64,000 nucleotides of DNA from Clostridia bacterium (GCA_045600705.1 JAZRYL010000042.1:45507-109506), one strand, 5' to 3'; shown: positions 16,335-58,725, counted from the stretch's first letter. The notes: generated by a model from the sequence alone, not told the origin. Numbers and translations are program-made.

Positions 16335-16353
16335 TAAGTAATGCTACGGAGAA

Positions 16354-19623: not shown

Positions 19624-19640
19624 AAAACCGTCACAAAGGG

Positions 19641-20732
19641 GTGAATTTATTGCATTACGAGTTAATCGCAATTTTATGCGTTTTGTTCTGCCTGTTCATA
19701 CTTGCGCTGGAATATCTGTGGCTCGCCTCCCTTGCAAAAAGGCAGGAGGACGATGCGAAAAAGTACGATACCATTTCGCAAAAAGTGTACAGCATCGTTG
19801 AAGGAATTTTGTACAGTCCTTCCGAGGCAAGCAGAAAAAACGAAATAAAAGAACTTAAAAAAATAATGAAGGATGACGTTCGCACCTTTGAAATCATCAA
19901 TGCTCAGCTTTGCTTCTGGGACGAATACGGCGAAGATGATGCATTCGTGAACAAGCAGGAAGTCATTGATGCGGTTTACGAAGAACTTAAACCTATCGAA
20001 CTTTATGCAAAAATTCTTAAGAAAAAGGATAAGTATAAAATCGGTTACGCCTGCCGCCGACTTGCTGACTTCGATGCTTACGATTACCTTAACGACATTT
20101 ACGACCTTTCCAAATCAAAGAACCGTAACGTTTCGTACAGTGCGGCAATGGCACTTTCAAGACTCGGCTACACTGACGGCGTTGCCGAATACATTCTTGA
20201 CATTCAGGACGACAAAAAGTATTCCTGCCGTATCGTAAACGAAATTTTCGATACATTCAGTTCCGACCGTGCAGAACTTGCCGAAATTCTTTTGGAAAAA
20301 TGCAACAATTATATGAAAGCGGTTATTATCAAGGCCATTGCGGCATACAAGTTCGAACAGTTCGAAAAAATGTACATTGACGGAACGGTCAGCAAGGATA
20401 TGCAGATGCGTATTGCCTGCATTAAAGCCCTTGGCTATCTGGCAAAACGTGAAAACGAACACATTCTTGCAATTGCGGCAAAGGATAAGGACTGGGTAGT
20501 TCGCTGCGCCGCCATTGACGGACTGAAACGTCTTGATACCGTAACTGCAATCAACTGCGTTAAAGAAGGAGTCAAAGACAAGGAGTGGTGGGTTCGCCAG
20601 AATGCGGCACGTGCCCTTGCCGATATGAACGTAAACATTTCCGTAATCGAAGACATTTTGAGCGGATACGACAAATATGCTTCCGATGCGGCAAAATATG
20701 CACTTTACCGCCATGTAAACCTTAATCACTAA
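19641..20732 (+). CDS. Membrane-anchored HEAT-repeat (PBS-lyase-like) protein.
   Basis: N-terminal TM (LIAILCVLFCLFILALEYLWL), then HEAT-like repeats (DKDWVVRCAAIDGLKRL; EWWVRQNAARALADM). Confidence 0.55.
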   Translation: MNLLHYELIAILCVLFCLFILALEYLWLASLAKRQEDDAKKYDTISQKVYSIVEGILYSPSEASRKNEIKELKKIMKDDVRTFEIINAQLCFWDEYGEDDAFVNKQEVIDAVYEELKPIELYAKILKKKDKYKIGYACRRLADFDAYDYLNDIYDLSKSKNRNVSYSAAMALSRLGYTDGVAEYILDIQDDKKYSCRIVNEIFDTFSSDRAELAEILLEKCNNYMKAVIIKAIAAYKFEQFEKMYIDGTVSKDMQMRIACIKALGYLAKRENEHILAIAAKDKDWVVRCAAIDGLKRLDTVTAINCVKEGVKDKEWWVRQNAARALADMNVNISVIEDILSGYDKYASDAAKYALYRHVNLNH

Positions 20733-20768
20733 AGTATGATTCCACAATCATGGAAAGAATAGGTAACT

Positions 20769-22181
20769 ATGAGTTTTATTACTATTGTACGAGCATTTAT
20801 ATCATTCTTTAACTATTTCTGTATGGCATTTACATTGCTGCTCAGCGTGATATATATTGTTCAGTTGATAATTTCATTATTTTCCGTAACGAAAAACGAC
20901 AAATACCGTCAGTCCAACGACTTCGGACGGTACGTTGACAGTGAAAATATTCTTCCTATTTCGCTTCTTATACCTGCGTATAACGAACAGGAAAATATCG
21001 TGCAGAACATTAAATCGCTTATGACCATTGACTATCCCGAATTTGAAATATGCGTTGTAAACGACGGTTCTACGGACAGAACTCACGACCTTATCGTTGA
21101 GGCGTTCCACCTTTATAAAATTGAATCTTCCTTTAAGACCTCCATACCCACGCAGGAGGTTCGAGGCATTTATTACAATACCGAATATCCCAACCTTATC
21201 TACGTTGATAAGGAAAACGGCGGTAAATCCGATGCTCTTAATGCAGGAATAAACGTTTCATCGTATCCGCTGTTCGCCTGCCTTGATGCGGACTCCCGTA
21301 TCGAGCCGGACGCTCTGCTTAAACTTTCAACGGAATTCTTGAAAAACTCCGATACTATCGTTGCCGGCGGACTTGTTCGTATTGCCAACGGCTTCAAAAT
21401 CAAGGACGGCGTAGTCAGCGAATTTACAATGCCGCCCAAAATGGTTGAACGTTTCCAAATCGTTGAATATTACCGTTCTTTCCTTTCGGGAAGAGTAGGA
21501 TGGGGCGCCGCTAACGCAATGCTTATCGTTTCGGGCGCATTCGGTGTATTCAGAAAATCCTCCGTTATCGAGGTAGGCGGCTACAAGACGAATACCATCG
21601 GTGAGGATATGGAAATTGTCGTTCGTTTGCACAAATATTACAGAAGTCACCATAAAAAATACAAGGTTATTTTCTGTGAAGACTCGGTTTGCTGGACTCA
21701 GGGCCCCATGTCAATGAAGGATATCCGAAGCCAGCGCCGTCGTTGGCAGATAGGTCTGCTTGATACACTTTTAACACACAAAACAATGTTCTTTAACATC
21801 CGCTACGGCATTGTAGGTTTGCTTGCAATTCCGTACAACTGGATATTCGAGCTTCTCGGCGCCGTTATCGAGGTTTTGGGTTATGCGCTCATACCGTTCT
21901 CGCTGATAATGGGCGAATTGAATATGTTCTTCTTCATAATTTACTTCCTGCTTGCGGTGCTTTTGGGTATTATCCTTTCAATGGGAAGTCTTGTTCTTGA
22001 ACAGTTCACGAGAAAATCCATTATGACCGCAAAACAGTGCCTTATGCTTTCAATCTATACGATTCTTGAAAACTTCGGCTACCGTCAAGCGATTACAATT
22101 TTCCGTGTTGAGGGAATACTTAAATACCGTAAACTTCGCAGAACGTGGGGTAAGATTCAAAGAAAGGGTATTGAACAATGA
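20769..22181 (+). CDS. Family-2 processive beta-glycosyltransferase (synthase-type; PgaC/IcaA/BcsA/NodC-like).
   Basis: N-terminal TM, then LLIPAYNEQENI...VVNDGSTDRT, GGKSDALNAG, DADS (DxD), and the QxxRW motif SQRRRWQIG, followed by a C-terminal TM bundle. No PilZ domain is present. Confidence 0.8.
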   Translation: MSFITIVRAFISFFNYFCMAFTLLLSVIYIVQLIISLFSVTKNDKYRQSNDFGRYVDSENILPISLLIPAYNEQENIVQNIKSLMTIDYPEFEICVVNDGSTDRTHDLIVEAFHLYKIESSFKTSIPTQEVRGIYYNTEYPNLIYVDKENGGKSDALNAGINVSSYPLFACLDADSRIEPDALLKLSTEFLKNSDTIVAGGLVRIANGFKIKDGVVSEFTMPPKMVERFQIVEYYRSFLSGRVGWGAANAMLIVSGAFGVFRKSSVIEVGGYKTNTIGEDMEIVVRLHKYYRSHHKKYKVIFCEDSVCWTQGPMSMKDIRSQRRRWQIGLLDTLLTHKTMFFNIRYGIVGLLAIPYNWIFELLGAVIEVLGYALIPFSLIMGELNMFFFIIYFLLAVLLGIILSMGSLVLEQFTRKSIMTAKQCLMLSIYTILENFGYRQAITIFRVEGILKYRKLRRTWGKIQRKGIEQ

Positions 22182-24403
22182 AAAAAATTGCAATTTCAGT
22201 TATCGCAACTCTTTTGGTACTCGTATTTCTTGCCCAAATCGGCGTTCTTGAAAGATTCGGAATTCACGGAATTTCCGTTTTCACCAAGAAAAAAGAAGAC
22301 ACTTCTTCTTCGTCGTCGGAAAATACCGCAGAAACATATATTGATTCCACTACAAATGTAAGTTACCGCTTCAAAACAAAGGGTGACTACTTCTATCAGT
22401 ATGTGGACGGCGATTGGGAACAGCTTTTTATGCGCGGCGTAAACATCGGTGCTACCGAACCCGCTTTGTTCCCCGGTGACCTTACCATTTCCTACGACAG
22501 TTATCTTCGCTGGTTCGGCTATATCAGCGAAATGAACGCAAACTGCGTTCGAATTTACACGCTTATGCCTCCGCAGTTCTATCAGGCATTGGCGGATTTT
22601 AACAAAAGTACAAAAAAGAACGTTTACCTTTTCCAAGGAATTTGGGTAAACGAAGAAGATATTGAACGTCTTTCCGATGCGTATGCGGAAAACGAAAAAA
22701 TTCTTAACGATTTCACCGCCGACGCAATAAACCTGGTGGACGTTATTCACGGCAACGCAAAAGTGGCGGAAAGCCCCGGTGAAGCATCGGGTACCTACAC
22801 CGCCGACGTTTCAAAATGGCTCGCAGGGTGGATTATCGGTATCGAATGGGACCCGAACTTCGTTATGAACACGGACCAGCAGCACCCGGACAAGAAAGAT
22901 TTTGACGGTGAGTATCTGTACACACAGACCGCCTCACCTTTCGAAGCGTTCCTTTGTCGAGTGGGCAATTCAATGATAAAGTACGAAACGGATACCTATA
23001 ATTTCCAAACTCCGCTTGCTTTCACAAACTGGATTACTACCGACCCGCTTACACACCCCAACGAACCCCACTTCGATGAGGATAAGGCAACGGTAAATAC
23101 AGAAAACGTTAAGTACAGAGATTTTGGACCCGGTATGTTTGCTTCGTACCACATTTACCCGTACTATCCCGACAGTCTTAACTATCAGACAGACTATCTT
23201 CAGTACATTGACGAGGACGGCAACGTAAACACCTACCTTGCTTATCTTGAAGACCTTAAGCTTGCACACACTATGCCTATCATCGTTGCCGAATTCGGTA
23301 TTCCCACCTCACGAGGCTTGGGCCATAAGAGTGTTATGGGTTACGACCAGGGCGGCGTTGATGAGATGGACCAAGGCGAAATGATTATAAATATGCTCAG
23401 GTATATTGAAGATACTAAATATGCGGGAGCAATTATTTTCACATGGCAGGATGAATGGTTTAAGAGAACGTGGAACAACGTTATGTACGATATCGCTGAC
23501 CGCCGTCCTTTCTGGACGAACATTCAGACAACGGAACAGTGCTTCGGCGTAATGGCATTCGACCCCGGTCAGGAAAAGTGCGTTTGCTACGTTGACGGCG
23601 AAACAAACGATTGGAATTCATTTTCACCTGTGGTTTCAACGTCGCAGGGCGACCTTTATGTTACAAGCGACGAAAGATACGTGTATTTTATGGTGGATGC
23701 CAAGGACTACGACTTCGAAAACGATACGCTTGTCATTCCCGTAAACACCATTGCAGACCAGGGAAACAGTGCGGCAACCGCTTACGGTGCACAGTTCGAC
23801 AAGGATGCCGACTTCCTTATTTACATCAACGGCAAGGAAGATTCCCATATCTTCGTTGACAGATATTACGATGCTTTCAACTACTATTTCCTTAACTCCA
23901 AAAAGCTCAGCGATATTCCCGAGGAAGAAAATGCCAACGTTAAAAACAGCGGTAATTTCGACATTATGCGCCTCTGCTACGGCTATAACCTTACCGTAAA
24001 GGGAACGGGCGAGGTGGTTACCGATAAGGCTTACGAAACGGGCAAACTTCTTTTCGGAAACGGCAATCCCGATGCGGAAAATTACAGGTCGTTAAGTGAT
24101 TTCTGCTACAAAAACGGCAAACTTGAAATAAGAATTCCGTGGCAGCTTCTTAACATTATGGACCCGTCGGGCAAAAAGCAGATTTCCGATTTCTGGCAGA
24201 CGCAGGTTATTTCGCCCCAGGATTACACGGAATTCAATATGGGCTTTGGGTACAGAAGCAACACAAGCACCGATACGCTTCAGGTTTCCCTTTCCGGCTC
24301 CTACGACTACAAAGCGTGGAATATGCCCACGTGGCACGAGCGTCTTAAACCTGCATATTATCAGTTGCAGGAATATCTTTCAAAATTCGTGGAGGAACAA
24401 TGA
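22178..24403 (+). CDS. Secreted or membrane-anchored clan GH-A-like TIM-barrel protein (putative glycoside hydrolase of unknown family), 741 aa.
   Basis: Its start overlaps the stop of the upstream gene (ATGA), and it has an N-terminal TM or signal. MNANCVRIYT resembles the clan-A GFNAVRIP motif. IIVAEFGIPTSRG looks like a clan-A nucleophile motif (xxxxEFG). Conserved C-terminal motif LEIRIPWQLLNIMDPSG. Confidence 0.5.
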   Translation: MKKIAISVIATLLVLVFLAQIGVLERFGIHGISVFTKKKEDTSSSSSENTAETYIDSTTNVSYRFKTKGDYFYQYVDGDWEQLFMRGVNIGATEPALFPGDLTISYDSYLRWFGYISEMNANCVRIYTLMPPQFYQALADFNKSTKKNVYLFQGIWVNEEDIERLSDAYAENEKILNDFTADAINLVDVIHGNAKVAESPGEASGTYTADVSKWLAGWIIGIEWDPNFVMNTDQQHPDKKDFDGEYLYTQTASPFEAFLCRVGNSMIKYETDTYNFQTPLAFTNWITTDPLTHPNEPHFDEDKATVNTENVKYRDFGPGMFASYHIYPYYPDSLNYQTDYLQYIDEDGNVNTYLAYLEDLKLAHTMPIIVAEFGIPTSRGLGHKSVMGYDQGGVDEMDQGEMIINMLRYIEDTKYAGAIIFTWQDEWFKRTWNNVMYDIADRRPFWTNIQTTEQCFGVMAFDPGQEKCVCYVDGETNDWNSFSPVVSTSQGDLYVTSDERYVYFMVDAKDYDFENDTLVIPVNTIADQGNSAATAYGAQFDKDADFLIYINGKEDSHIFVDRYYDAFNYYFLNSKKLSDIPEEENANVKNSGNFDIMRLCYGYNLTVKGTGEVVTDKAYETGKLLFGNGNPDAENYRSLSDFCYKNGKLEIRIPWQLLNIMDPSGKKQISDFWQTQVISPQDYTEFNMGFGYRSNTSTDTLQVSLSGSYDYKAWNMPTWHERLKPAYYQLQEYLSKFVEEQ

Positions 24404-26559
24404 AAAAACTGATTTCGGCTTTGCTTGCGGCTCTTGTGATTTTATCGGCAACGGGCTGCAACAGTCCGCTTGTTAATCCGGATGAAAAAAAGAATAACAA
24501 CGGTAATTATCCCTCGCCGGAATCGTCGGTCGCAGCACCTAACGGCTACGGTGTCGATTTTGATTTTTTCACACATTCCAACGGATATTTCTACAAAAAC
24601 GGTGAGAATACGGAACTTACCTACATTCGAGGCGTGAATATGGGACTTTCCGAAGCCACCACGGATTTGGCAAATCCCGATATCACCTACGATACGTTCA
24701 GCGAATGGTTCTCGCAAATCAAGGAAATGAACGCCAATACGGTGCGTGTCTTTTCCGTTATGAACCCGGATTTCTATAATGCGCTTTACGATTTCAACAA
24801 GGAACATTCCGATTCTCCGCTTTACCTTATTCAGGGAATATGGTTTTCCGAGGACCTTATGTACGAACTGACCGATGCTCTGGAAAGCGATGAAATTCTT
24901 ATTTCCGCGTTCAAGCGCTCTGTTACTGAAACAATCGACATTGTTCACGGAAACAGCAACTATACCACCTACGGCAAAATTTCGCCGGCTATTTACAAAA
25001 AAGACGTTTCAAAGTATTGCATAGGCTATATTCTCGGCCTTGAATATCCTGCCGAATTCGTTATTGAAACGAATGCTTCGCACCCGGATAAAAAGGAATT
25101 TTCGGGAACATATCTTTATACCGACACCGGCGCATCGCCGTTTGAATATTTTCTGTGCGACGTTGGCGAAACGCTTATCGCATACGAAACAGACAATTAT
25201 TCCCACCAGACACCCATTGCGTTTCTTAACTGGCAGACGCTTGACACCATAAGACATTCCAACGAGCCCTTTGTGGACGAGGAAGATGCGGTCAGCGTAA
25301 ATACCGAAAATATTATGAAAACGTCAATGTACGTTCCAGGACTTTTTGCCGCAGTAGATATTTACCCCTATTACCCGGAATTTATGAATCACCAAGGCGA
25401 ATATCTTGAATACCGTGACGAAAACGGCAACAGTGACACTTACAGAGCGTATCTTAATGACCTTAAAAAGCAGTATTCCGTGCCGGTTCTTGTTGCCGAA
25501 TACGGACTTCCCACATCAAGAGCCGTTGCACATCTTTCGGTTAACGGCTACAATCAAGGCGGATTGACCGAGCAGGAGCAGGGCGAATACTGCGCACAAA
25601 TGACAAGAAGCATTGCGCTTGAAGGCTATTGCGGCGGACTTCTTTTCTCGTGGCAGGACGAATGGTTCAAAAGAACGTGGAATACCACAATGTACTATCC
25701 CGAAAATCCCTCGGAAAGAACGCACAATCTGTCCTCCGCCGAGCAGAGTTACGGAATTGTAAGTTATGACGTTTCAAAATACTATCCCGACGGTGATTTT
25801 TCTGAATGGACTGATTTGGATTTCATTCAAAACACCAACGTAAAGGTTCGCTACGATGCGGAATATATGCACGTCTACGTGGAACTTCCGTCGAATTTCA
25901 ATTTTGAAAAGGATAAATACTACGTTCCCATCTCGGTTTTGGGCGCAGGAAGCACCGAATGTAAAGATAAAAATCTTTCGTTTGATAAAAATTGCGATTT
26001 CCTGCTTGAAATAAACGGCGAACAAAATACCCGAATACTGTGCGACGAATACGTGGATTTGTTCAAATTCAAGTATTACGTGCAGAAAAACGTGTTCGGA
26101 AACGTGGCAAGCCTTGCGGATAATACCGGCAAATACAACAAAATTCAGATGATTGTTGCAAACGAAATGTACTTGCCCGACGATGACAAAACTATTCCTC
26201 CTCAGTCCTACGAAACGGGACTTCTCAGATACGGCATCGCCAATCCCGATTCGGAACAGTTTAATTCTCAGGCAGATTTCTATTATAAGGACGGCGAGGT
26301 GGAAATTCGCATTGCGTGGCACTTGCTTAACGTTGCGAATGCTCGGCTGAGTATGTGCATTGACAAGTTCACCGGCGATGAAGTCACTTTCACGGGCTTT
26401 AAGGACATTTATATCGGCAGCGGCACAAGCGGCGAAATATCGTTAAATCCCACATACTTCGAAGCGCCTAAGTTCGTTAAGGTGAAAAAACGTCTTAAAG
26501 CTTCATATAAATATATGAAAGACGCCTTTGCCGAACTGAAAGAAAATATCAGCAACTGA
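24400..26559 (+). CDS. Lipoprotein paralog of the previous GH-A-like protein, 719 aa.
   Basis: Start overlaps the stop of the upstream gene. Lipobox LSATGC. About 40-45% identity to the 22178 product over its length (IQGIWFSEDLMYELTDALESDEIL...; VLVAEYGLPTSRA; VEIRIAWHLLNVAN). Confidence 0.5.
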   Translation: MKKLISALLAALVILSATGCNSPLVNPDEKKNNNGNYPSPESSVAAPNGYGVDFDFFTHSNGYFYKNGENTELTYIRGVNMGLSEATTDLANPDITYDTFSEWFSQIKEMNANTVRVFSVMNPDFYNALYDFNKEHSDSPLYLIQGIWFSEDLMYELTDALESDEILISAFKRSVTETIDIVHGNSNYTTYGKISPAIYKKDVSKYCIGYILGLEYPAEFVIETNASHPDKKEFSGTYLYTDTGASPFEYFLCDVGETLIAYETDNYSHQTPIAFLNWQTLDTIRHSNEPFVDEEDAVSVNTENIMKTSMYVPGLFAAVDIYPYYPEFMNHQGEYLEYRDENGNSDTYRAYLNDLKKQYSVPVLVAEYGLPTSRAVAHLSVNGYNQGGLTEQEQGEYCAQMTRSIALEGYCGGLLFSWQDEWFKRTWNTTMYYPENPSERTHNLSSAEQSYGIVSYDVSKYYPDGDFSEWTDLDFIQNTNVKVRYDAEYMHVYVELPSNFNFEKDKYYVPISVLGAGSTECKDKNLSFDKNCDFLLEINGEQNTRILCDEYVDLFKFKYYVQKNVFGNVASLADNTGKYNKIQMIVANEMYLPDDDKTIPPQSYETGLLRYGIANPDSEQFNSQADFYYKDGEVEIRIAWHLLNVANARLSMCIDKFTGDEVTFTGFKDIYIGSGTSGEISLNPTYFEAPKFVKVKKRLKASYKYMKDAFAELKENISN

Positions 26560-26590: not shown

Positions 26591-26630
26591 CAGCCCCCTG
26601 CGGATTGAACGCAGGGGGCTTTGCTGTTTT
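26591..26630. terminator. Bidirectional rho-independent terminator between convergent genes.
   Basis: An 11-bp GC-rich stem agccccctgcg / cgcagggggct flanked by an A-rich 5' side and ttgctgtttt on the 3' side. Confidence 0.7.
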
Positions 26631-26648: not shown

Positions 26649-29600
26649 TTAGTCTGCTGTGTATTCAACAGTGGAAGCGGTTTTATATGCACATCCTGCA
26701 AGGTTGGCGGTAACTGTTTCGTCGTTCAAACAAGATACTGACATTGTTCCGCTGAACGTTGTGCCGGCGAACATATATCTTATTCCCATTGTATCATACG
26801 ATACTTTTTCGCCTAAACTGTCGTATGCACCTGCGGTGAGCGATCCTACAAGATTTGAGAAATAGCATTCACGGGGAACTGTAAGTGTTATGACCGTTTC
26901 TTCACCGGGGGCAAGGTTTACGTTACATCTTGCAGAAGTGATGGGGGTAAGATTTTCATCGGCATAAGCCACGTGACCCCAGTTGTAATTCAGTGATACC
27001 CATGTAACAGTTGCCGTAGTGTTGTTCTTGATAAGAAGTTGAACTTCTTTTTCAGTTTCGCCGTCTTCAAAAACAAGATCGGAGAAAGGCAGACTTGATG
27101 CGTTAGCACCCGACGTGCTGACAATGTAAAGATTTTGTCCAGCAAGCGTGTAACGGGCACAAGCCGTGTTTTCACAGAAAAGGCACTGTGCATCGTTATA
27201 ATCAATGATGCTTTGGAGATTTTCGGGCAACAGAGTAGCACGGGTAACATTTTCGAATGTATCTTGTGCGCTCATTGAACCTGTTGCGGATAAGCCAACT
27301 GTTACGGCAGGGTCGTTAAGACAGGTAACGTACAGACTTCCGTCAGCGGTATTGCTAAATCCGAATTTAATTCCGAAATCTTTATAAGAAATCTGCTCGC
27401 CTAAACTGTCGTACGCACCTTGAGTGAGCTGCCCCGGCTGATTTGAGAAATAACACATTTTGGGAACGGTCAATTCGATAACCGCATATTCACCGGGGAG
27501 AATACGTTCTGATGAGTACGTGCCGGATATACGGACAAGTTGGTCAGCAGAGGGATATGCCAAATATCCCCAGTTATAGCAAAGGGTGGCTCCCGTAAGA
27601 GTTGCATTTGTGTCGTTGTAAACAAGGAAGCGGTAAAGTTTACTGTCTTCGTTACCCATATCTGAGAATTTGAATGGTGTAACTCTGCTTGAACCGGATT
27701 TTGATACAACGTAATTTCTTGTTCCTGCAAGAGTAATCTTGGCAACATCCACGTTGTGGTGACCCGTGGCGGGAAGTGAAACAATGTTTTCTGTTACTCC
27801 TTCGCAATGGACACATTTGTCACCGTATCTAAAACCGTCAATGCAATCGGCAATGCTTCTTGTTCCGATATAGCCAATCCGTTCAAGTTCTTGAACAAGG
27901 TCTTCGGGTACTGAGAGTTTATTCGATATCAGGCTTGCATTAACATGTCTGCCGCCGTTGGCACCGGCCTGCGATAATGCATAATTGAGTGTGGCTTCGT
28001 TAAGTCCGGAAACGTAAAGAGTGCCGTCGTTTACTGCACCGTCAAACATAAACCTTAATCCTACGGAATGATAGTCAATAAGTTGACCTAAACTGTCAGA
28101 ACTTCCGTCTGTTGCGTTGTTGCGCAAATTGGAGTAAATTGCTTGGCGGGGCAAGGTAAGAGTGATTTCAATTCCCTGGCCGGGCATAAGCTCAAGTGAT
28201 TTGGCCGTATTGGGAATACGTGTAAGATTGTCAGCATCGGGATAAGCATAGAAGCCCCAATTATAGTTAAGCGTAACGCTTGTAAGTTTTTTGTTTGTGC
28301 CGTTGTACAGATACAAGTGAATTTCTTTTTCGTTTTCATCACCCATATCCACGAACTTAAAGGGTGAATATTCAACTCCGGGACGGGTAACTAAGTATGA
28401 ACCGTTAATGTCGTTAAAACCAACGGTTTCAAATGACTTGTGACTGAGTGCCGGAACAATAGTATCACTTGTGATGCGGCCGCATCGTGTGCAGGCGGAA
28501 ATTTCAAATCCATCAGCGTCGCAGGTGGGTGCAATGTAGGAAGTAACCTTATCGTTATGACCGAGGGAAGCAATCCTCTCCGTTTTAGTAGCGTTACAAC
28601 GGGTGCAGGCAAAATATTTTGTTCCTTCTGCTTCGCAGGTAGCGGGAGCGGTGGAGGTAAGAACAAAATCATGACCTAATGCGCTATGCATCGTCTGACC
28701 GCAGATTTCGCATACCTGAGCGGTAAGGCAAGTTGCTTCAGCACCGGGCGTATGCGCACCGTAGTCTTCAAGGGCAGTTTGAGTCATTTCAGCGGAGCAG
28801 TGTACGCAAAGATTGGAAGAATGACCTTTGTGCATACAGTCGTGTTCAAAAAGTCCGATCTTTGAAAAACCGCAGGCGGTAAGTCCGTCATTGACATAGT
28901 TGGGAACTGCCGTGTTCTGCAACAGCGCAACGGGTTCGTCGTTGAAGCAAGCCGTTTTTGAAAGGCAGGCATTGATGTTTCCTGCTTCCACACCGTCGGA
29001 ATTTATGCAGGTAATGTAAACGTTTCCGGTGGCATTGCCGCCGCCGAACATAATACGAAGTCCCAAATCCTCATAGGAAACTATCTCGCCGTTGCTGTCG
29101 GTAGAACCGTCGGTAAGGTAGCCCGATTTATTGGACATTATGCAATTCTTGGGAACGGTCAGTGTAACTTGGATGCCGTTGTGAGGTGCAAGAGAGCCGT
29201 TCCAACAGGTGTTTGGAATACGTGTAAGTGTTCCGTTGGCAGGATAAGCGTAGTATCCCCAACGGTAGCCGAGTGAGAATGTTGTAATAGTCTTATCCGT
29301 ATCATTGAAGAGATAAAAACTTACTTGTTTGGAATCTCCGCTCATACTCATTGTCTTAAAGGGAGTGAGTTTATCTGCACCGGCATTTGTAACGACGTAA
29401 TAGTAAGCACCGTTTACGGAAATGCGAACAGTTTCTGTTTCGGCGTGATTCAAAGCACTGATGTTGTCGGTTTCAACGATTCGGCAGCGAGTACAGATGT
29501 GATCTACTTTTCCTGCTTCGGTGCAGGTAGCGGGAACAGAACTGTTTTCAAAATCGTGACCTAAAGCGTCATTGATGATAGCATGACAATTTCTGCAAAC

Positions 29601-32600
29601 TTGCGGTGCCGTGCAGGTTGCGTTAGCTCCGCCTTGATGCGGAAGCAGGGGTGAAGCGGTAAGTGAACCGGATATTATACTGTTGCAGTCCGCACAGTAG
29701 GTGTATGCGCCGTGACCGCGACGTGCGCAGGTGGAATTCATTGAACCAAATATAACGGTATTTGAATGTGCGCAGGAAGCATTGGCACGACAAACGTAAA
29801 GCGCCATATCGCAGGTTTCTTTTTCAGTAACATTCCACGTTCCGGAGGACGAGGCGGTGAAACTGCCGGCCGAATCAATTTGACCTGTAACGGGATTAAA
29901 CCATATATAATTATATGAAGCATTAGCTGTTAAGTGACCTAAAACACCGGTTTTTACAGCATTTTCGGGTGTTGCGTTAGGTGTTCTTGCAATAGTAGTA
30001 TCACTGAAATTGTAGAAGTAAACTACTGCCTTGCTTGAGTCATTCGCAGAAGCGCAAATGGGGAATACTCCGTTGTTTTCGGGCGTAAAGTATTCCGTAT
30101 AGTCAAAGCGAGGAACAAGGTCGTACCAATTTCCAACCAAGTTGGACATAAATTCGTGCAGATAGCCTAACTGATAAGTGCTTGGATATTCAAGTGAACT
30201 TTCCCACGTTGCGGCAACTTTATCTGCGGCGGTAATAATATCTACACCGTCGGTACTGTCTTCGTCTTCACCGTAGGAACTTAAATAGCACCATGTGTCC
30301 TGACCGCCCCATGCGGCACCGTACATTCCGCTGAGGTATGCCATCCAGCCCTGAACTCTTGCACCGAAATTTTTTGTCCAAAGGTAACAGTATTTTCCCT
30401 CGTAAAGAACTACCGGTTTACCTTGACCGTTCTGCCAATAATCCATAGGTGCAGTTTGATTTATTTTTACATTGTAACTTTGTGACCACTGTGAAGCATA
30501 CCAAGTATGCGCTGAACAGTCACGGAAAGCAGAATCTGAAGCGGCGGTACTGCCGGAATATTCCTGATGAGCGGTCAACGGATGCGAGTAGGCATCGTGA
30601 TGAGCGATACGTTCAGCAACATAAACGTAGGGGTTGTTTACGTATGACCATTCCATGTGACTGTTATATTCACTTCTATCCCAATAGAAGTCGTTGTCAA
30701 CCTCTTGACCGAGAGTCCAGAAAACGGGATAAGCACCGTAACGGGCAACCCAGTATCTTGAAATAAGGTCAAGTGCTTCTTTTGCCGAATCGGATAAATC
30801 GTACACGGTAACGTTTGAATGATTTTCGTTTGCTGTGCCTACGGGGGTATTTGACCATCCGCCGTTATTATTGATAAATGATTTCATATCCGACGGGAAG
30901 AAGAATTCCGCATTTGAATGGCACAATCCGTAGGAGGCGATTATGTCGAATTTTTCGTCATTAACGTGGAAACCGTCAATATCTTCTTGGGTGATGCCGT
31001 TTTTTGCATTGAAGCCTGCACCAATCGGTTCGGACTGAATAACGGTGAAGTTCTGCTGAACACGTTTTTTTACTACTGTTTTAATGTTTGAAACGGGTTC
31101 GGAGCCCATTCCCCAATGGGTATCGCCGAGATAGAAGAACGGTGTTCCGTCTGCATAGGTGAAATATTTTGTTGATCCGGTTTTTACGAATCCGTGACGG
31201 TAAATATCAAGAGTTCCTGCGTAAGGTGTGCAGATAACTGTTCCGGTCTGATTGTGAAGCCCCCCATCAAGGGTGTTTGAACAATCGGTGTAATAAGTCC
31301 ATGTTCCGGGTTCGGTGCAAACAAAACGGGCACGCCAAATATTGCTTCCGTCCCAGAATGCGGGAACGGTGTAGGTGACTGTTCCGTTTGTAAGGACAAG
31401 GTCGAGAGTTACGTCCTTATAGGGGTTCGAGTAAGTGTTTTTTGCAACAAAGACTGCCTCGTTGAGTGTCCATGTGGAAGCACGGCCTACTTCGTGAGCA
31501 TAGTCGCTGCCGTCGTCAATAAGAATAATGCGGAAATTGTCTATTTTTATATTTGTTACGTCGGCAGCAATCATGTGAAAACCGAATTTCCACCAACCCG
31601 AAGCGTTAACGTCGGCATCGGAAACGGTAAAAGTGTCTTCGTAAGAATACCACTGATTACCTGCCTTTGTGCCTGCACCCTTTAAGCCTCTGTAGTTTGT
31701 AAAATTACAGAAAGAATACTGTTTATCAGTACGGATAACGCAGGAGAAAGGCTGTTCGGCGGTAGTATTGTTCGCTTTGTAGTCAAATGAAATCTTATAT
31801 GTACCTGCACGGTCAATTCTTGTTTTAATATTTATTGCAGCGGTGTGGAATGAATAACTGCTTCCTGAATTTTTTGTAAATTTAAAACAGTTGCCGTCCT
31901 TGCCGTCAGCAGAAATGGCCGTTGTGACTGAACCGAATGATTCCGTCCACATAGTGTCGTTTACGTTTGAAACATTATCAAAGGAAGAAGAACTTTCGGG
32001 AATTATATTTGCCGATTCGGAAGCGATAACCTTTACATTGTCAATGTAAATTTCCGAAACGGAGTTGTGAATTTGATGTAAGCAAAGATCCCACTTATTT
32101 TTGGATGCAAAATCTGCTTCGGTGAAAGTGAGAGTAGCGGTGTATGTGTACCATACGCCCGATGAACCGAATTTTGCCTGAGACAGTTCACCGTAATAAT
32201 TATCACCGTAAAGTCTTGCAAATGAATACTGCTTGTCGGTACGAATAAGTACTGTGAACGGCTGACATTCGGATGAAGAGGTTACCGAGTAGTCGAACAG
32301 AAGTGTGTATGTACCGGGGTGATCTATATAAGGAGCAAGATTTAATGCGGCTGAAGCATACGATCCGCCGGAAGCGGGTTTTACCACTTTGAGGCATTTT
32401 CCGGGGTTGCCTAAATCAACTACCGACATGTTAGGCGAACCGTAGTGGTTACCCCAACCTGCATCGATAGGAGAAACTGCACTGTCAAAATTACTTGCTT
32501 TGTCCGGAATAATATTTCCGGCACGGCAGATAAGGCTGTTTTCTGTTGCCGATACATTAAGCGCAAGCATTGGAAATACAGACAGAATCATTGTAAGGCT

Positions 32601-32639
32601 AATCAGAATACTCAAAAATTTAGTATGTGTTTTTTTCAT
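26649..32639 (-). CDS. Giant secreted multidomain carbohydrate-active protein (1996 aa): two N-terminal CBM-like domains, a DUF4038/GH140-like TIM-barrel domain, Cys-rich modules, and four tandem C-terminal domains of about 170 aa.
   Basis: Signal peptide MKKTHTKFLSILISLTMILSVFPMLALNVSA. Central domain with FFYLGDTHW, WTLGQEVDN (clan-A acid/base-like) and VLYEGKY motifs. Repeated Cys modules (ALGHDF..PATC..G.....CTRC). Four repeats of the ...NYNWG(F/Y)(L/Y)AYP...TRIPNT... domain. Confidence 0.6.
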   Translation of the reverse strand: MKKTHTKFLSILISLTMILSVFPMLALNVSATENSLICRAGNIIPDKASNFDSAVSPIDAGWGNHYGSPNMSVVDLGNPGKCLKVVKPASGGSYASAALNLAPYIDHPGTYTLLFDYSVTSSSECQPFTVLIRTDKQYSFARLYGDNYYGELSQAKFGSSGVWYTYTATLTFTEADFASKNKWDLCLHQIHNSVSEIYIDNVKVIASESANIIPESSSSFDNVSNVNDTMWTESFGSVTTAISADGKDGNCFKFTKNSGSSYSFHTAAINIKTRIDRAGTYKISFDYKANNTTAEQPFSCVIRTDKQYSFCNFTNYRGLKGAGTKAGNQWYSYEDTFTVSDADVNASGWWKFGFHMIAADVTNIKIDNFRIILIDDGSDYAHEVGRASTWTLNEAVFVAKNTYSNPYKDVTLDLVLTNGTVTYTVPAFWDGSNIWRARFVCTEPGTWTYYTDCSNTLDGGLHNQTGTVICTPYAGTLDIYRHGFVKTGSTKYFTYADGTPFFYLGDTHWGMGSEPVSNIKTVVKKRVQQNFTVIQSEPIGAGFNAKNGITQEDIDGFHVNDEKFDIIASYGLCHSNAEFFFPSDMKSFINNNGGWSNTPVGTANENHSNVTVYDLSDSAKEALDLISRYWVARYGAYPVFWTLGQEVDNDFYWDRSEYNSHMEWSYVNNPYVYVAERIAHHDAYSHPLTAHQEYSGSTAASDSAFRDCSAHTWYASQWSQSYNVKINQTAPMDYWQNGQGKPVVLYEGKYCYLWTKNFGARVQGWMAYLSGMYGAAWGGQDTWCYLSSYGEDEDSTDGVDIITAADKVAATWESSLEYPSTYQLGYLHEFMSNLVGNWYDLVPRFDYTEYFTPENNGVFPICASANDSSKAVVYFYNFSDTTIARTPNATPENAVKTGVLGHLTANASYNYIWFNPVTGQIDSAGSFTASSSGTWNVTEKETCDMALYVCRANASCAHSNTVIFGSMNSTCARRGHGAYTYCADCNSIISGSLTASPLLPHQGGANATCTAPQVCRNCHAIINDALGHDFENSSVPATCTEAGKVDHICTRCRIVETDNISALNHAETETVRISVNGAYYYVVTNAGADKLTPFKTMSMSGDSKQVSFYLFNDTDKTITTFSLGYRWGYYAYPANGTLTRIPNTCWNGSLAPHNGIQVTLTVPKNCIMSNKSGYLTDGSTDSNGEIVSYEDLGLRIMFGGGNATGNVYITCINSDGVEAGNINACLSKTACFNDEPVALLQNTAVPNYVNDGLTACGFSKIGLFEHDCMHKGHSSNLCVHCSAEMTQTALEDYGAHTPGAEATCLTAQVCEICGQTMHSALGHDFVLTSTAPATCEAEGTKYFACTRCNATKTERIASLGHNDKVTSYIAPTCDADGFEISACTRCGRITSDTIVPALSHKSFETVGFNDINGSYLVTRPGVEYSPFKFVDMGDENEKEIHLYLYNGTNKKLTSVTLNYNWGFYAYPDADNLTRIPNTAKSLELMPGQGIEITLTLPRQAIYSNLRNNATDGSSDSLGQLIDYHSVGLRFMFDGAVNDGTLYVSGLNEATLNYALSQAGANGGRHVNASLISNKLSVPEDLVQELERIGYIGTRSIADCIDGFRYGDKCVHCEGVTENIVSLPATGHHNVDVAKITLAGTRNYVVSKSGSSRVTPFKFSDMGNEDSKLYRFLVYNDTNATLTGATLCYNWGYLAYPSADQLVRISGTYSSERILPGEYAVIELTVPKMCYFSNQPGQLTQGAYDSLGEQISYKDFGIKFGFSNTADGSLYVTCLNDPAVTVGLSATGSMSAQDTFENVTRATLLPENLQSIIDYNDAQCLFCENTACARYTLAGQNLYIVSTSGANASSLPFSDLVFEDGETEKEVQLLIKNNTTATVTWVSLNYNWGHVAYADENLTPITSARCNVNLAPGEETVITLTVPRECYFSNLVGSLTAGAYDSLGEKVSYDTMGIRYMFAGTTFSGTMSVSCLNDETVTANLAGCAYKTASTVEYTAD

Positions 32640-32682: not shown

Positions 32683-32711
32683 ATTATAGCATACCGCTTT
32701 TTCAATTTCAA
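32683..32711 (-). promoter_or_regulatory. Sigma-A-type promoter for the giant gene at 26649..32639.
   Basis: Read on the minus strand: TTGAAA, a 17-nt spacer, then TGcTATAAT (extended -10), about 40 nt upstream of the ATG. RBS aaggaaagag. Confidence 0.45.
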
Positions 32712-33030: not shown

Positions 33031-34707
33031 ATGAACGATTACAAAAGAACTGTTCTCATAGTGGACGATAACGAGTTTAACCGTGATTTTTTAACAGAAT
33101 TACTTTCAGATGAGTATTTTGTTCTTAAAGCGGAAAACGGTCAAGTCGCTTTTGATTTGCTGAAAAGCGACGACGGAATGATTTCTGCGGTTTTGCTCGA
33201 TATGCACATGCCGGTTATGGACGGAGCGACGTTTCTCGACGCCGCCGGCAAGGATGCCAAAATTTCCAAGATACCCGTAATAATAATGACCACATCAGAC
33301 GATATTAAAACTGAAGTAAGTTGGCTTAACAAAGGCGCAGTGGACTTTATTCCCAAGCCGTTTCATCCCGATGCGGTAAAAGCACGACTTAAAAATGCCA
33401 TCAATCTCCGTGAATCGGTGGCAATGCTTTCCGCCACGGAATTTGACGAACTCACGGGTTTTTACACCCGAGGCGCATTCTTGAAGCACGCAGAAATTCT
33501 GCTGCAAAAGCGGCCGGACGTTCGTTTTGACCTTGTGACCGCAACTATATTCGACTTTGACCAGATCAGTTACAAATACGGCTCGGACATGGCGACTGAG
33601 GTGGTTCGCTGCATCGGTCAGAACGTGCTTGAAGGAGACACTGAGTATTGCATTACGGGAAGATTCGATAACGAACAGTTTGCTGCACTGATTCAGGTGG
33701 ATGCCGACGGAGCAGACGGCATGGAACAAATCAAAAAGACACAAATTGCGATAGAAACTAACTCGCCGGTGAAGGACGTTAAACTTAAATATGCGATATA
33801 CGAAAACGTTGAGCATAACATTCCCGTCTACGTTTTGTGCAGCCGTGCGTTCAATGCGCTTCAGCAAATCAGACACAGTTACGGCGTGACCTGTGCCAAG
33901 TATTCGCCGGAAGTCCAAAAAGAAATAGACATTCTTAACGAATTGGAAGACGGCATGGTCAAAGCACTTGAAGAAAAGCAGTTTGAAGTGTATTATCAGC
34001 CGAAATTCTACGTTGCGGACGGAAAAGACCGCATTGCGGGTGCGGAAGCGCTTGTCAGATGGGTGCATCCTGACAAGGGATTTATCAAGCCGGACGTGTT
34101 TATCGGTATGTTCGAAAAAAACGGATTTATCAGCAAACTTGACAGATATATGCTTGAAAACGTTTGCCGTGACATTAAGGAATGGCGTGAACAGGGTATT
34201 CCCGTGTTTCCCGTTTCGGTTAATTTGTCCCGTGTTGACTTTTCAATAGCCGACCTTGCTCAGCGTGCCGAGGAAATAGTGGATTCTTATGGAATTCCTC
34301 ACGAACTTATCCATTTTGAAGTTACCGAATCTGCATTTACCAAGCATGACGGTTTGCTGAAAACGATAATTCATCAGTTACATTCGGCAGGCTTTTCCAT
34401 TGAACTTGACGATTTCGGAACGGGATATTCTTCGCTTTCGTCGTTGCAGAGCCTTGACCTTGACATGGTAAAACTCGATATGAGCCTTATTCGTGAGGAC
34501 GACCCGAATTCCGGCAAAAGCGTGCTTGAATTGGCACATAACATTGTGAATATGATGAAAATGAAAACAGTTCAGGAGGGCGTGGAAACACAAAGCGAAC
34601 TTGAACGTGTTCGAGATTTGGGGTGTGCGTTCGTGCAGGGATTTTATTTTTCCAAGCCCCTTTGCAAAAAAGATTTTGTTACATTTATTAAAAATATGAA
34701 AGTATAA
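33031..34707 (+). CDS. Response-regulator c-di-GMP phosphodiesterase: REC, degenerate GGDEF, and EAL domains.
   Basis: REC (VLIVDDNEF...LLDMHMPVMDG); a GGDEF-like region with RFDNEQF in place of GGDEF; an EAL domain with YYQPKF, EALVRW, DDFGTGYSS and KLDMSLI motifs. Confidence 0.8.
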   Translation: MNDYKRTVLIVDDNEFNRDFLTELLSDEYFVLKAENGQVAFDLLKSDDGMISAVLLDMHMPVMDGATFLDAAGKDAKISKIPVIIMTTSDDIKTEVSWLNKGAVDFIPKPFHPDAVKARLKNAINLRESVAMLSATEFDELTGFYTRGAFLKHAEILLQKRPDVRFDLVTATIFDFDQISYKYGSDMATEVVRCIGQNVLEGDTEYCITGRFDNEQFAALIQVDADGADGMEQIKKTQIAIETNSPVKDVKLKYAIYENVEHNIPVYVLCSRAFNALQQIRHSYGVTCAKYSPEVQKEIDILNELEDGMVKALEEKQFEVYYQPKFYVADGKDRIAGAEALVRWVHPDKGFIKPDVFIGMFEKNGFISKLDRYMLENVCRDIKEWREQGIPVFPVSVNLSRVDFSIADLAQRAEEIVDSYGIPHELIHFEVTESAFTKHDGLLKTIIHQLHSAGFSIELDDFGTGYSSLSSLQSLDLDMVKLDMSLIREDDPNSGKSVLELAHNIVNMMKMKTVQEGVETQSELERVRDLGCAFVQGFYFSKPLCKKDFVTFIKNMKV

Positions 34708-34779: not shown

Positions 34780-35127
34780 ATGGACGTTAAAAAGTTTTAC
34801 GATAGTATAGGCGGAGATTACGACAATGCAAAATCACGTCTGACCAGCGATGAACAACTCGAAAAATTCCTTAAAAGGTTTCCTGCTTACGTTGATATTG
34901 AGGGACTTACAACAGCGGTGAACAATAAGGATTACCGCACCGTATTCGACATAACGCATACGGTTAGGGGAATGTGTCTTAATTTGGAACTGACTCCGCT
35001 GACGAAAAGCAGTTCGGCGCTTTGCGAATCCGTTCGCAACGGTGCGCCTGCGGAAGACATTCAGCCGCTGCTTGAAAAATTCAGAAAAAATTTCGACAAG
35101 GTAAAACAGTGCCTGCAAAACGGTTAG
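34780..35127 (+). CDS. Putative Hpt (histidine phosphotransfer) domain protein.
   Basis: The 115-aa helical protein has HTVRGMCLNLEL, which resembles the Hpt motif HxxKGxxxNLG. It sits immediately downstream of the REC-EAL gene. Confidence 0.4.
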   Translation: MDVKKFYDSIGGDYDNAKSRLTSDEQLEKFLKRFPAYVDIEGLTTAVNNKDYRTVFDITHTVRGMCLNLELTPLTKSSSALCESVRNGAPAEDIQPLLEKFRKNFDKVKQCLQNG

Positions 35128-37664: not shown

Positions 37665-38486
37665 TTATATGGGCTTTTTGCTTTTGCGGTATTCACTCGG
37701 AGTTTTGCCGGTAATGCTCTTAAAAAGTCTTCGGAAATATATTGCCGATTCAAAGCCGTAAGTATATGCTATATCCTCTATTTTTTCATTCGGCTCGCTG
37801 ACAAGAGTGTTCATTGCGTGACGGATACGAATTTTGTTTTTATAATCAATCGGCGTCATTCCCGTTTCATTCTTGAAAGCCGTGAAGAAGCGAACCTCAC
37901 TCATATAGCAAAGCGACGCAAGATATTTTACGGAAACTTTTTTATCAAAATTCATTTCCAAATAGTCGAGCGCAGGCTGAATTGTGGTGCTTTCCGAAAT
38001 TTCGGTATATTTAAGTTGTGAAAAGGTGTCCGCACAAAGCGAATAAAACGTACTCACGAAAGAAAACGATTCCGAGTTTGTGTCATTCTGATGCTCGTAA
38101 ATGTACTTCATTTTCGCTTCCGAGTCCGCATTTCCCTTTAATATTTGGATATGTATTAACTTGTTTTTCAAAGGGTCGTAGCGCCAATCAAAGTCAAAAT
38201 GTGCCGTGATTGACTCTATTATTCCTTTTCCGTGCCACCGATACCGGTATGTGCACCCTTTCGGGATAAACGCAAAATTTCCCGCATACGCCGTAACAAA
38301 ATTTCCGTTTTCTTCAAAATCGACTTGACCGCTTATTACGTAAGACAGATTGTGGCTCGGTCGTGGAGTTGTTGAAAAATCATCGCTGACTTCATCTTTA
38401 TATTCATACGAATCTGTAACAAAATACTTCAGCCCCTGCTTCGGACAGTACATAATCAGTTTCCTTTCTTTAGTGCAACAATACAA
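37665..38486 (-). CDS. AraC-family transcriptional regulator (cupin sensor plus HTH_AraC).
   Basis: The C-terminus has two HTH motifs of the AraC type (...LASLCYMSEVRFFTAFKNETGMTPIDYKNKIRIRHA...). The N-terminal half is cupin-like. The start may be the internal ATG at 38453. Confidence 0.75.
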   Translation of the reverse strand: MYCCTKERKLIMYCPKQGLKYFVTDSYEYKDEVSDDFSTTPRPSHNLSYVISGQVDFEENGNFVTAYAGNFAFIPKGCTYRYRWHGKGIIESITAHFDFDWRYDPLKNKLIHIQILKGNADSEAKMKYIYEHQNDTNSESFSFVSTFYSLCADTFSQLKYTEISESTTIQPALDYLEMNFDKKVSVKYLASLCYMSEVRFFTAFKNETGMTPIDYKNKIRIRHAMNTLVSEPNEKIEDIAYTYGFESAIYFRRLFKSITGKTPSEYRKSKKPI

Positions 38487-45047: not shown

Positions 45048-45158
45048 TAAATAAAGAGTTATGGGCTGTTTTGTGAAATGCAAGACAGCCCTTATAATAA
45101 ATGTAGCAATCCGGTTTGAATTTTATAGGGTTGCGACAGATTATAAGGAAGTGATTAT

Positions 45159-46259: not shown

Positions 46260-46272
46260 GGAGGGCGAAAAA

Positions 46273-58529: not shown

Positions 58530-58563
58530 AAAACGGCAGAGAATTTTCTCTGTCGTTTTTTTG
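58530..58563 (+). terminator. Rho-independent terminator ending the SipW/TasA-like operon.
   Basis: acggcagagaattttctctgtcg followed by tttttttg. Confidence 0.7.
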
Positions 58564-58603
58564 ATAAATCCCTGCATTAAAAATAACACCGAAATAATTT
58601 TTA

Positions 58604-58632
58604 TTGAAAATATAACGGTTATCGTGTATAAT
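58604..58632 (+). promoter_or_regulatory. Sigma-A-type promoter for the LuxR-family gene.
   Basis: TTGAAA (58604-58609), a 17-nt spacer, and TATAAT (58627-58632), about 90 nt upstream of the ATG at 58726. Confidence 0.5.
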
Positions 58633-58725
58633 ATATGTCGTAATGCTAACCGCTTGGCGGTGCGTTTCAGCGGCAAAACGGAATACGGCATTGTTCGTAT
58701 TTGCGTAAAAAAAACGGAGCGAAAA

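Follow-up and report, generated by a model that had tools for sequence, protein, structure and literature searches.

What does a secreted enzyme gain from a tail of four repeats joined by Cys-rich segments, and on what does such an enzyme act? The question is raised by a gene in a 64,000-nucleotide stretch of DNA from Clostridia bacterium (GCA_045600705.1, JAZRYL010000042.1:45507-109506; hereafter, the window), where an open reading frame (ORF) of 1996 codons with an ATG start occupies positions 26649..32639 on the minus strand. We estimate at about 60% the probability that the product is a monocistronic, Sec-secreted, multi-modular retaining glycoside hydrolase (GH), in which a GH140-related core with a Glu/Glu catalytic pair is combined with two CBM22-like modules and four targeting 'z-R' modules, each consisting of Cys-rich, putatively zinc-binding (z) units followed by a previously undescribed domain, denoted R. 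That the protein is a secreted GH of the PF13204/GH140-related superfamily is, taken separately, highly likely.

Under this proposal, catalysis would be performed by a core consisting of the DUF5060 domain, the PF13204 (beta/alpha)8 domain and a beta-sandwich, with E646 as the acid/base and E747 as the nucleophile, whereas two layers of targeting would be provided, respectively, by the two CBM22-like modules at the N-terminus and by the four z-R supramodules at the C-terminus. Each stalk would be a run of ~35-residue, three-stranded units, rigid and free of disulfides, with each unit probably clamped by one structural Zn2+ through three Cys and one His, and would present a single R domain, most likely a carbohydrate-binding one; four copies of R would give avidity. 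The enzyme would be secreted, remain free or loosely attached, and act on a complex dietary glycan. In kind, this is an ordinary multi-modular carbohydrate-active enzyme (CAZyme) of Gram-positive bacteria; what is new is the R domain, the z-R supramodule and the uncharacterised catalytic branch to which the core would belong.

Domain architecture and origin of the hydrolase

The features recognised within the gene are the following, from the N-terminus to the C-terminus of the protein (pLDDT, predicted local distance difference test).

32547..32639, minus strand: signal peptide, residues 1-31 (MKKTHTKF...LALNVSA, followed by TEN), read from the translation only
32019..32534, minus strand: N1, divergent CBM22/CBM_4_9-like beta-sandwich, residues 36-207 (38% identical to N2; family profile)
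31518..32018, minus strand: N2, paralogue of N1 and likewise CBM22/CBM_4_9-like, residues 208-374 (PF02018 with E 0.0013, under the cut-off)
31281..31478, minus strand: DUF5060 Ig-like domain preceding the barrel, residues 388-453 (Pfam, E 1.4e-16; aligns with residues 17-119 of 4n0r)
30138..31172, minus strand: PF13204 (DUF4038, 'apiosidase-like', GH140-related) (beta/alpha)8 domain, residues 490-834 (Pfam, E 1.6e-26)
30702-30704, minus strand: putative acid/base E646, in WTLGQE (profile alignment)
30399-30401, minus strand: putative nucleophile E747, in VVLYEG (profile alignment)
29805..30137, minus strand: C-terminal beta-sandwich of the core, residues 835-945, equivalent to the PF12904-type domain of relatives (profile alignment)
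29445..29741, minus strand: putative zinc-unit array A, three units, residues 967-1065 (pattern scan and unit profile)
28956..29444, minus strand: R1, residues 1066-1228 (self-BLAST and profile)
28440..28850, minus strand: putative zinc-unit array B, four units, residues 1264-1400 (pattern scan; AlphaFold2 model of residues 1325-1403, pLDDT 94.6)
27957..28439, minus strand: R2, residues 1401-1561 (self-BLAST and profile)
27759..27857, minus strand: single putative zinc unit, residues 1595-1627 (pattern scan)
27273..27758, minus strand: R3, residues 1628-1789, the copy modelled (AlphaFold2, pLDDT 90.9)
26682..27173, minus strand: R4, residues 1823-1986 (self-BLAST and profile)

This map agrees in most respects with a preliminary description of the locus made from the DNA alone, which had proposed a 1996-residue secreted enzyme with a DUF4038-like barrel, CBM-like domains, Cys-rich modules and four tandem C-terminal domains. 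The ORF and its ATG start are present, a secreted multi-domain GH is supported, and the motif strings quoted there are all found in the translation (as YNWG(F/Y/H)..AY, TRIPNT and GHDF/PATC/CTRC). The N-terminus (MKKTHTKFLSILISLTMILSVFPMLALNVSA, followed by TEN) reads as a Sec signal peptide, with an MKK start, a hydrophobic core and a cleavage site between VSA and TEN. Self-BLAST together with the Cys-unit scan confirmed the four tandem C-terminal repeats alternating with Cys-rich parts; the repeats are 37-45% identical to each other (E 1e-28 to 1e-37) and number four as described, but are ~160 rather than ~170 residues long. The protein ends 10 residues past R4 with no anchor motif, and no LPXTG motif, SLH domain, dockerin or transmembrane anchor was found anywhere in it. 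An NCBIfam scan of the 1996-residue protein returned noise only.

BLAST of segments against the whole protein revealed a paralogous N-terminal pair, residues 36-207 and 208-374, with 38% identity (E 1e-32). The window's own copies fall below threshold in Pfam, with N2 scoring 19.5 bits against PF02018 (CBM_4_9), under the gathering cut-off of 25.9; however, a profile of 16 N1/N2-type domains (alignment A5) matched the CBM22 module of Xyn10C from Paenibacillus barcinonensis (4xup/4xun) over ~147 residues with E 2e-4 to 5e-4, and 5 of the 16 members matched PF02018 itself, the best with E 1e-5. Like CBM22/CBM_4_9 modules, N1 and N2 would be ~170-residue beta-sandwiches. The description of these domains as CBM-like is borne out, with membership of CBM22/CBM_4_9 itself tentative; all such modules precede the core, whereas the preliminary description had placed them on both sides of it.

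In a whole-protein search, the identical NCBI protein was P0001, encoded on a 109.5-kb contig; the closest orthologues, of 1801-1802 residues, are 46-48% identical to the window protein at 90% coverage, and further orthologues are 1527-1528 residues long. Many other relatives have in common with the window protein only a CBM-like module and the core. The name 'Candidatus Fimenecus sp.' is attached to one fragment within an orthologue cluster, and, judging by these relatives, the producer would be an uncultured gut bacterium of the Oscillospirales type of Clostridia, with Candidatus Fimenecus as its nearest named relative.

The catalytic core and its probable substrate

Both DUF5060 and PF13204 match far above the curated Pfam cut-offs, PF13204 with 94.1 bits against a cut-off of 26.5 and with positions 4-316 of the 320-position model covered. 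Together with matches to GH140-type structures, this corroborates the DUF4038-type barrel proposed on the basis of two motifs, FFYLGDTHW (residue 501) and WTLGQE (residue 641). Searched as a single sequence against solved structures, the protein retrieved 4n0r (E 5e-8), through DUF5060, and, in a stretch of 52 residues, 8t9w (E 0.008). When the cores of 13 homologues were combined into a profile (alignment A3) and run against PDB sequences, the matches were 8t9w (E 7.4e-28), 4n0r (E 1.8e-19), BT_1012 (3kzs/5msy, the founding member of GH140; E 2.9e-19) and 4qfu (E 4.5e-19); the matches to 8t9w and 3kzs span ~410 residues, reaching residue 409 of the 434-residue 8t9w chain.

In the HMMER alignments, E747 corresponds to the glutamate of the YEE/YED motif of BT_1012 and 8t9w, and E646 to the aspartate of their 'GGD' motif and to the glutamate of 'ANE' in 4n0r. 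Both glutamates are unchanged in all 13 homologues of A3, at identities down to 30%. The acid/base and nucleophile glutamates typical of clan GH-A are thus present, at positions that the alignment places after strands 4 and 7 of the barrel. The catalytic pair of BT_1012 is Asp187 and Glu284, and the acid/base site in PF13204 is Asp in 82% of the members and Glu in 17% (PMC4032388). The window enzyme does not match the BT_1012-type pair: the equivalent of Glu284 is kept (E747), whereas that of Asp187 is Glu (E646). By its sequence, then, this enzyme belongs to a minority branch of PF13204 that keeps the classical Glu/Glu pair of clan GH-A; the core is predicted to be catalytically competent and would act by a retaining mechanism. 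Both catalytic positions are occupied, and therefore the possibility raised in the preliminary description, that of a barrel without catalytic residues, falls away. No paper on a subfamily combining DUF5060 with the Glu/Glu pair was found among the titles and abstracts retrieved for DUF5060 and for GH140 with apiosidase.

The relationships with the solved structures differ in kind. BT_1012 and 8t9w have the same succession of a (beta/alpha)8 domain and a beta-sandwich and the same nucleophile glutamate (in YEE/YED, against YEG in the window enzyme), but an acid/base Asp in place of Glu; moreover, the window enzyme, which comes from Gram-positive Clostridia, adds the N-terminal DUF5060 domain, longer insertions and ~1400 residues of accessory modules, and its likeness to them does not imply apiosidase activity. 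The putative GH 4n0r, a structural genomics target, shares the DUF5060 N-domain followed by a barrel and the acid/base Glu (ANE in 4n0r, GQE here), with the profile match covering chain residues 3-367; it differs in its low sequence similarity and in lacking the CBM, zinc-unit and R modules.

These comparisons bear on a rival view, in which the gene product would be a GH140 apiosidase, or would closely resemble one in function, and would strip rhamnogalacturonan II (RG-II) of its apiose-linked side chains, with the accessory domains targeting pectin. Apiosidase is the only characterised activity in PF13204, the core profile matches the apiosidases 8t9w and BT_1012, some relatives contain rhamnosidase-like fusions, and the genome neighbourhood of BT_1012 connects it with rhamnosidases (PMC4032388). 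The kinship with the apiosidases is, however, at the superfamily level only, given the single-sequence match to 8t9w; both apiosidases have Asp as the acid/base; the DUF5060 domain is held in common with the uncharacterised 4n0r and not with BT_1012; the GH9, GH3, GH43, GH92 and CE-type fusions of the relatives do not point to RG-II; and the window contains no further gene recognisable as pectin-degrading. We consider this function improbable. Of the earlier proposal of an apiosidase-like or other clan-A hydrolase, the clan-A hydrolase part holds, whereas apiosidase activity on RG-II is unsupported because the apiosidases characterised to date are only distant relatives of the core and have Asp where it has Glu.

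A broader view of the substrate comes from the distribution of the core subfamily. At least 546 relatives of the core are present among GTDB species representatives; the closest 79, at least 47% identical over the 566-residue core, were fetched. Nearly all of these 79 come from uncultured metagenome-assembled genomes (MAGs) of Acutalibacteraceae, Oscillospiraceae, Ruminococcaceae or 'Clostridia', obtained from rumen, caecum, faeces or the human gut, the animal hosts being yak, goat, sheep, cattle, buffalo and horse. Among loci L013-L088, several paralogues per MAG are found, with up to five loci in a single MAG, for example JAZNSH01. The commonest architecture among the GTDB loci is one CBM22-like module plus the core. 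The z-R tail was considered as a general feature of the subfamily and rejected, being present in only 3 of the 79 closest loci, the three nearest to the window protein. Across the relatives, the core is fused to GH9, GH3, GH43 with CBM6, GH92, rhamnosidase-like, GDSL, F5/8-C, cohesin and dockerin domains. Because of this gut distribution and these fusion partners, the subfamily appears to degrade complex dietary, probably plant, glycans, and the substrate of the window enzyme is most likely one of these.

Cys-rich units and the R domain

A regular-expression scan identified eight complete Cys-rich units of the form C-x(5-10)-C-x2-C-x(10-18)-H, each of ~30-40 residues and arranged as 3 + 4 + 1, and a vestigial C-x2-C-x4-C at residues 1819-1827, located ahead of R4 and running into its start. 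The Cys-rich modules noted earlier are therefore real, but are not single short modules: they form arrays of three, four and one units, plus the vestige. In an alignment of 40 units from the window and from other proteins, only four columns, C/C/C/H, are invariant. The AlphaFold2 model of two units is confident (pLDDT 94.6), with three beta strands predicted per unit.

These modules had been described as not known, but they match units already described in an IgA protease. In the PDB sequence set, the unit profile matched one bacterial chain, 9qa6_A, the IgA protease (IgAse) of Thomasclavelia ramosa (E 3.6e-5), in the stretches 860-881, 948-978 and 1111-1134, which fall at the Obeta/ZBD1 junction and within ZBD1 and ZBD2. 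The only stronger match, to the designed poly-zinc-finger protein Aart (2i13), runs only through the CxxC knuckle. ZBD1 and ZBD2 of IgAse comprise residues 879-1008 and 1101-1171, respectively, and consist of ~35-residue subdomains with putative structural zinc sites made of two His and two Cys or, in one case, of three Cys and one His; disulfides were not seen, and catalysis does not need the ZBDs, which were modelled but are unresolved by cryo-electron microscopy, the map spanning S32-N876 (PMC12237041).

The units of the two proteins are homologous, with the same ~35-residue pattern, ...(A/P)TCT..G.....C..C.........GH, predicted three-stranded beta subdomains and Cys/His ligand sets without disulfides, and in both cases are interleaved with a beta domain (BB8 in IgAse, R here) in a secreted protein of the Clostridia type. 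The differences lie in the partner domain (R), in the enzyme class and in the ligand set, which is three Cys and one His in all eight window units but mostly two His and two Cys in IgAse; zinc itself is only predicted in both proteins. The E-G5 repeats of the staphylococcal proteins SasG/Aap provide an analogy of form only, having no sequence relation to the units, and G5 and E are devoid of Cys/His sites.

The units extend well beyond this enzyme. A search with a two-unit profile returned 417 further matches at E <= 1e-5, all of them short fragments annotated as 'hypothetical'. They come from various Clostridia, including Oscillospiraceae, Ruminococcus and Faecalibacterium, and no Pfam model covered the Cys3His unit in any of the 417. 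In other proteins, the unit occurs beside LRR_5, pectate-lyase, dockerin and Flg_new domains. Judged from these matches, the Cys-rich modules are a widespread but uncurated repeat. We consider it likely that the units act as zinc-clamped, rigid spacers or stalks, zinc binding and rigidity being predicted from the ligand pattern and the models.

Two further observations on the units were made in passing. Giant surface proteins of Clostridia contain up to ~25 tandem Cys3His units with a ~41-residue period (P0059, residues ~1415-2432; also P0050, P0051 and P0053), and the units fall into three length classes, with C-x5-C, C-x9-C or C-x10-C ahead of the CxxC.

In contrast to the Cys-rich units, the R domain is rare. 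In an exhaustive HMMER search with a 12-copy R profile (alignment A2) against 1.84 billion cluster representatives (E <= 1e-3), only 21 proteins were found to carry R; P0001 and P0004 belong to the clusters of these carriers. A DUF4038-type core is present in 8 of the 21, seven by direct scan and P0005 from the precomputed Pfam list, and these eight are spread over three branches, among them cellulosomal enzymes that bear a dockerin and have a core only ~27% identical. Two carriers are CE2 acetyl-esterases, three contain a divergent CBM22-like module (one of these without a catalytic domain), and in 10, mostly short or fragmentary, nothing else was recognisable. In most carriers, R comes immediately after one to four zinc units, and the His of the last unit lies a few residues before the first strand of R; by this arrangement, z-R behaves as a conserved supramodule.

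The claim that the repeat is uncharacterised held up. No match to Pfam was obtained for any of the 12 R copies, and none in the PDB sequences was better than E 0.084. The confident AlphaFold2 model of R3 (pLDDT 90.9) is a beta-sandwich with a short C-terminal helix, for which Foldseek returned no match at E <= 1e-3 and no TM-score above 0.37; the weak neighbours are viral jelly-rolls and CBM11/22 (TM ~0.3), as well as CBM6, CBM35, CBM36, lectins and collagen-binding domains. As modelled, R is a rare, undescribed jelly-roll domain that belongs to no solved family. It resembles the jelly-roll carbohydrate-binding modules (CBM6/11/35/36), the ColG collagen-binding domain and PirA in general fold class, and is placed within carbohydrate-active enzymes as a CBM would be, but resembles no Pfam family or PDB chain in sequence. 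Aromatic and polar residues abound among the positions conserved in A2 (N48, Y61, W63, G64, A67, Y68, S105, N106, D117, G120, Y125 and F134), which fits a sugar-binding, and perhaps Ca2+-binding, surface.

Two observations concern possible relatives of R and of its carriers. The 7339-residue protein P0084, which contains no zinc units, has 37 stretches that match the R profile; in a local scan, fourteen ~120-residue repeats passed E 1e-3. This protein may be related to R only distantly, as an adhesin-type form. Furthermore, a C-terminal domain of unknown function, ~260-300 residues long and ending in ...YSVxxYV...LARALGCYGxSA..., recurs in the R carriers P0004 (residues 1230-1528), P0005, P0080, P0087, P0090 and P0082; it is 50% identical between the GH P0004 and the CE2 esterase P0080 and is absent from the window protein.

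The principal competitor to carbohydrate binding as the function of R is attachment to the cell surface, with the R domains and zinc stalks serving as non-covalent anchors on a wall or capsular polymer of the producer, perhaps the polymer made by the neighbouring GT2 operon. Gram-positive bacteria commonly anchor proteins through tandem repeats at the C-terminus, the absence of LPXTG, SLH, dockerin and transmembrane anchors from the window protein favours such a role, and a putative exopolysaccharide operon immediately adjoins the hydrolase gene. However, R also occurs in proteins that have their own dockerin (P0077 and P0078) or C-terminal hydrophobic anchor (P0086 and P0088), and hence is not needed for anchoring; it precedes the catalytic domain in P0075, P0076 and P0080, in contrast to its C-terminal location in the window protein; it partners only two types of enzyme, whereas generic anchors accompany many; and the R-bearing orthologues whose surroundings were examined are not found beside such an exopolysaccharide operon. 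We regard anchoring as unlikely. Since R is partnered only with two types of carbohydrate-active enzymes and is independent of anchors, a CBM role is the best hypothesis for this domain, to which we would give slightly better than even odds.

Several points weigh against the reading of the protein as a hydrolase with zinc-clamped, glycan-targeting z-R modules. The ZBDs of IgAse, the reference for the zinc units, are themselves only AI-predicted; the units are extracellular, and their odd number of Cys could allow disulfides between units, even though the host lives anaerobically; and, with the window protein having no other anchor, R could serve attachment instead.

More tentatively, and with the odds somewhat against it, a stronger version of the favoured interpretation can be formulated. 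R would found a new CBM family, restricted to a small number of Clostridia from gut and rumen and always associated with DUF4038-type hydrolases or CE2 esterases, that recognises the glycan cut by the Glu/Glu branch of PF13204; together with the Cys3His units, it would make up a 'zinc-stalk lectin', a new supramodule with which anaerobes build rigid extracellular spacers by means of structural zinc instead of disulfides.

Genomic context and implications

The transcription signals of the hydrolase gene and the genes on its divergent side are as follows.

32683..32711, minus strand: promoter-like site, TTGAAA-17 nucleotides-TATAAT with an extended -10 TG (consensus match only)
26592..26620, bidirectional: GC-rich terminator-like hairpin between the hydrolase gene and the convergent operon
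33031-34707, plus strand: REC-GGDEF-EAL gene, divergent
34780-35127, plus strand: Hpt gene, on the divergent side

The strong promoter attributed to the gene in the preliminary description is represented by a near-consensus site ~44 nucleotides upstream of the ATG, followed by an AGGA-type ribosome-binding site; its strength is a matter of consensus match only, as such sites are not enriched in the region overall (9 found against 12.6 expected from shuffles). Together, the promoter-like site and the hairpin are in keeping with a gene transcribed on its own. When all ORFs of the window were scanned with HMMs, R, zinc units and CBM22-like modules appeared in the hydrolase gene only, and their presence elsewhere in the window was accordingly rejected.

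The REC-GGDEF-EAL and Hpt genes divergent from the hydrolase gene are both real, as had been described, but the regulatory coupling suggested on this basis is not supported, because the pairing is not conserved at the orthologue places examined. These comprised seven places in three distinct arrangements: ribosomal L10/L12 genes adjoin the P0004 orthologue and locus L012, a relaxase/resolvase element and a collagen-like gene adjoin the Fimenecus orthologues, and bacterial microcompartment (BMC) shell genes adjoin P0075. Conserved synteny with GGDEF-EAL/Hpt or with the GT2 operon was rejected, as neither was present in any of the seven. The juxtaposition with genes of cyclic di-GMP (c-di-GMP) signalling is thus real but not conserved, and therefore we give the coupling low weight.

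The convergent operon (14103-26559, plus strand) encodes an HD_5 (HD-GYP-type) protein, a 1089-residue protein without Pfam matches, a HEAT-repeat protein, a GT2 chitin/cellulose-synthase-like enzyme, and two further proteins without Pfam matches, of 741 and 719 residues. It is possibly a c-di-GMP-linked exopolysaccharide operon.

Another reading would be that the hydrolase processes the producer's own exopolysaccharide, in the manner of BcsZ, PslG or PelA-type hydrolases, and is co-regulated with the GT2 operon and the c-di-GMP genes (REC-GGDEF-EAL, Hpt and HD-GYP-type). In its favour, an operon of GT2, HEAT-repeat and unknown-protein genes headed by the HD_5 protein converges on the hydrolase gene, from which REC-GGDEF-EAL and Hpt diverge. 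However, the hydrolase gene is on the opposite strand from these and has a promoter-like and a terminator-like site of its own; neither GGDEF/EAL/Hpt nor a GT2 operon accompanies its orthologues at the seven places examined; and members of its GH subfamily occur in multiple copies per genome, many of them as fusions with dockerins or with enzymes acting on plant cell walls. We therefore consider a role in processing the producer's own exopolysaccharide highly improbable, and retain the view of a single-gene unit encoding a secreted hydrolase directed at a dietary glycan.

Other genes of the window were recorded along the way. Further out in the neighbourhood of the hydrolase gene lie a 5'-nucleotidase-type gene and that of an AraC-type regulator (37665-38486, minus strand), the latter divergent from a gene for a 1169-residue secreted CE2/GDSL-like esterase (38639-42148, plus strand), the esterase part of which is 31-37% identical to the R-bearing CE2 esterases P0080 and P0088, while the protein itself is devoid of R. 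The window also encodes a fusion of GT2 with a polysaccharide pyruvyl-transferase (7070-9451, minus strand); a three-gene cluster for an SPFH/Band-7 protein, a multi-zinc-ribbon protein and a TPM-domain protein (43725-47406, plus strand); a 2084-residue protein with the Listeria-Bacteroides repeat, Flg_new (51704-57958, plus strand); and a 679-residue LuxR-type regulator with a PMP-repeat match (58561-60600, plus strand).

These findings entail no change of paradigm, but provide a useful lead for CAZyme discovery and for domain annotation. The sole description of the Cys3His units is a prediction in one 2025 paper (PMC12237041). If these units are indeed zinc-clamped rods, this would account for the construction of rigid, disulfide-free stalks outside the cells of strict anaerobes, and the ligand of R, once identified, could reveal the substrate of the enzymes that combine DUF5060 with the Glu/Glu version of PF13204.

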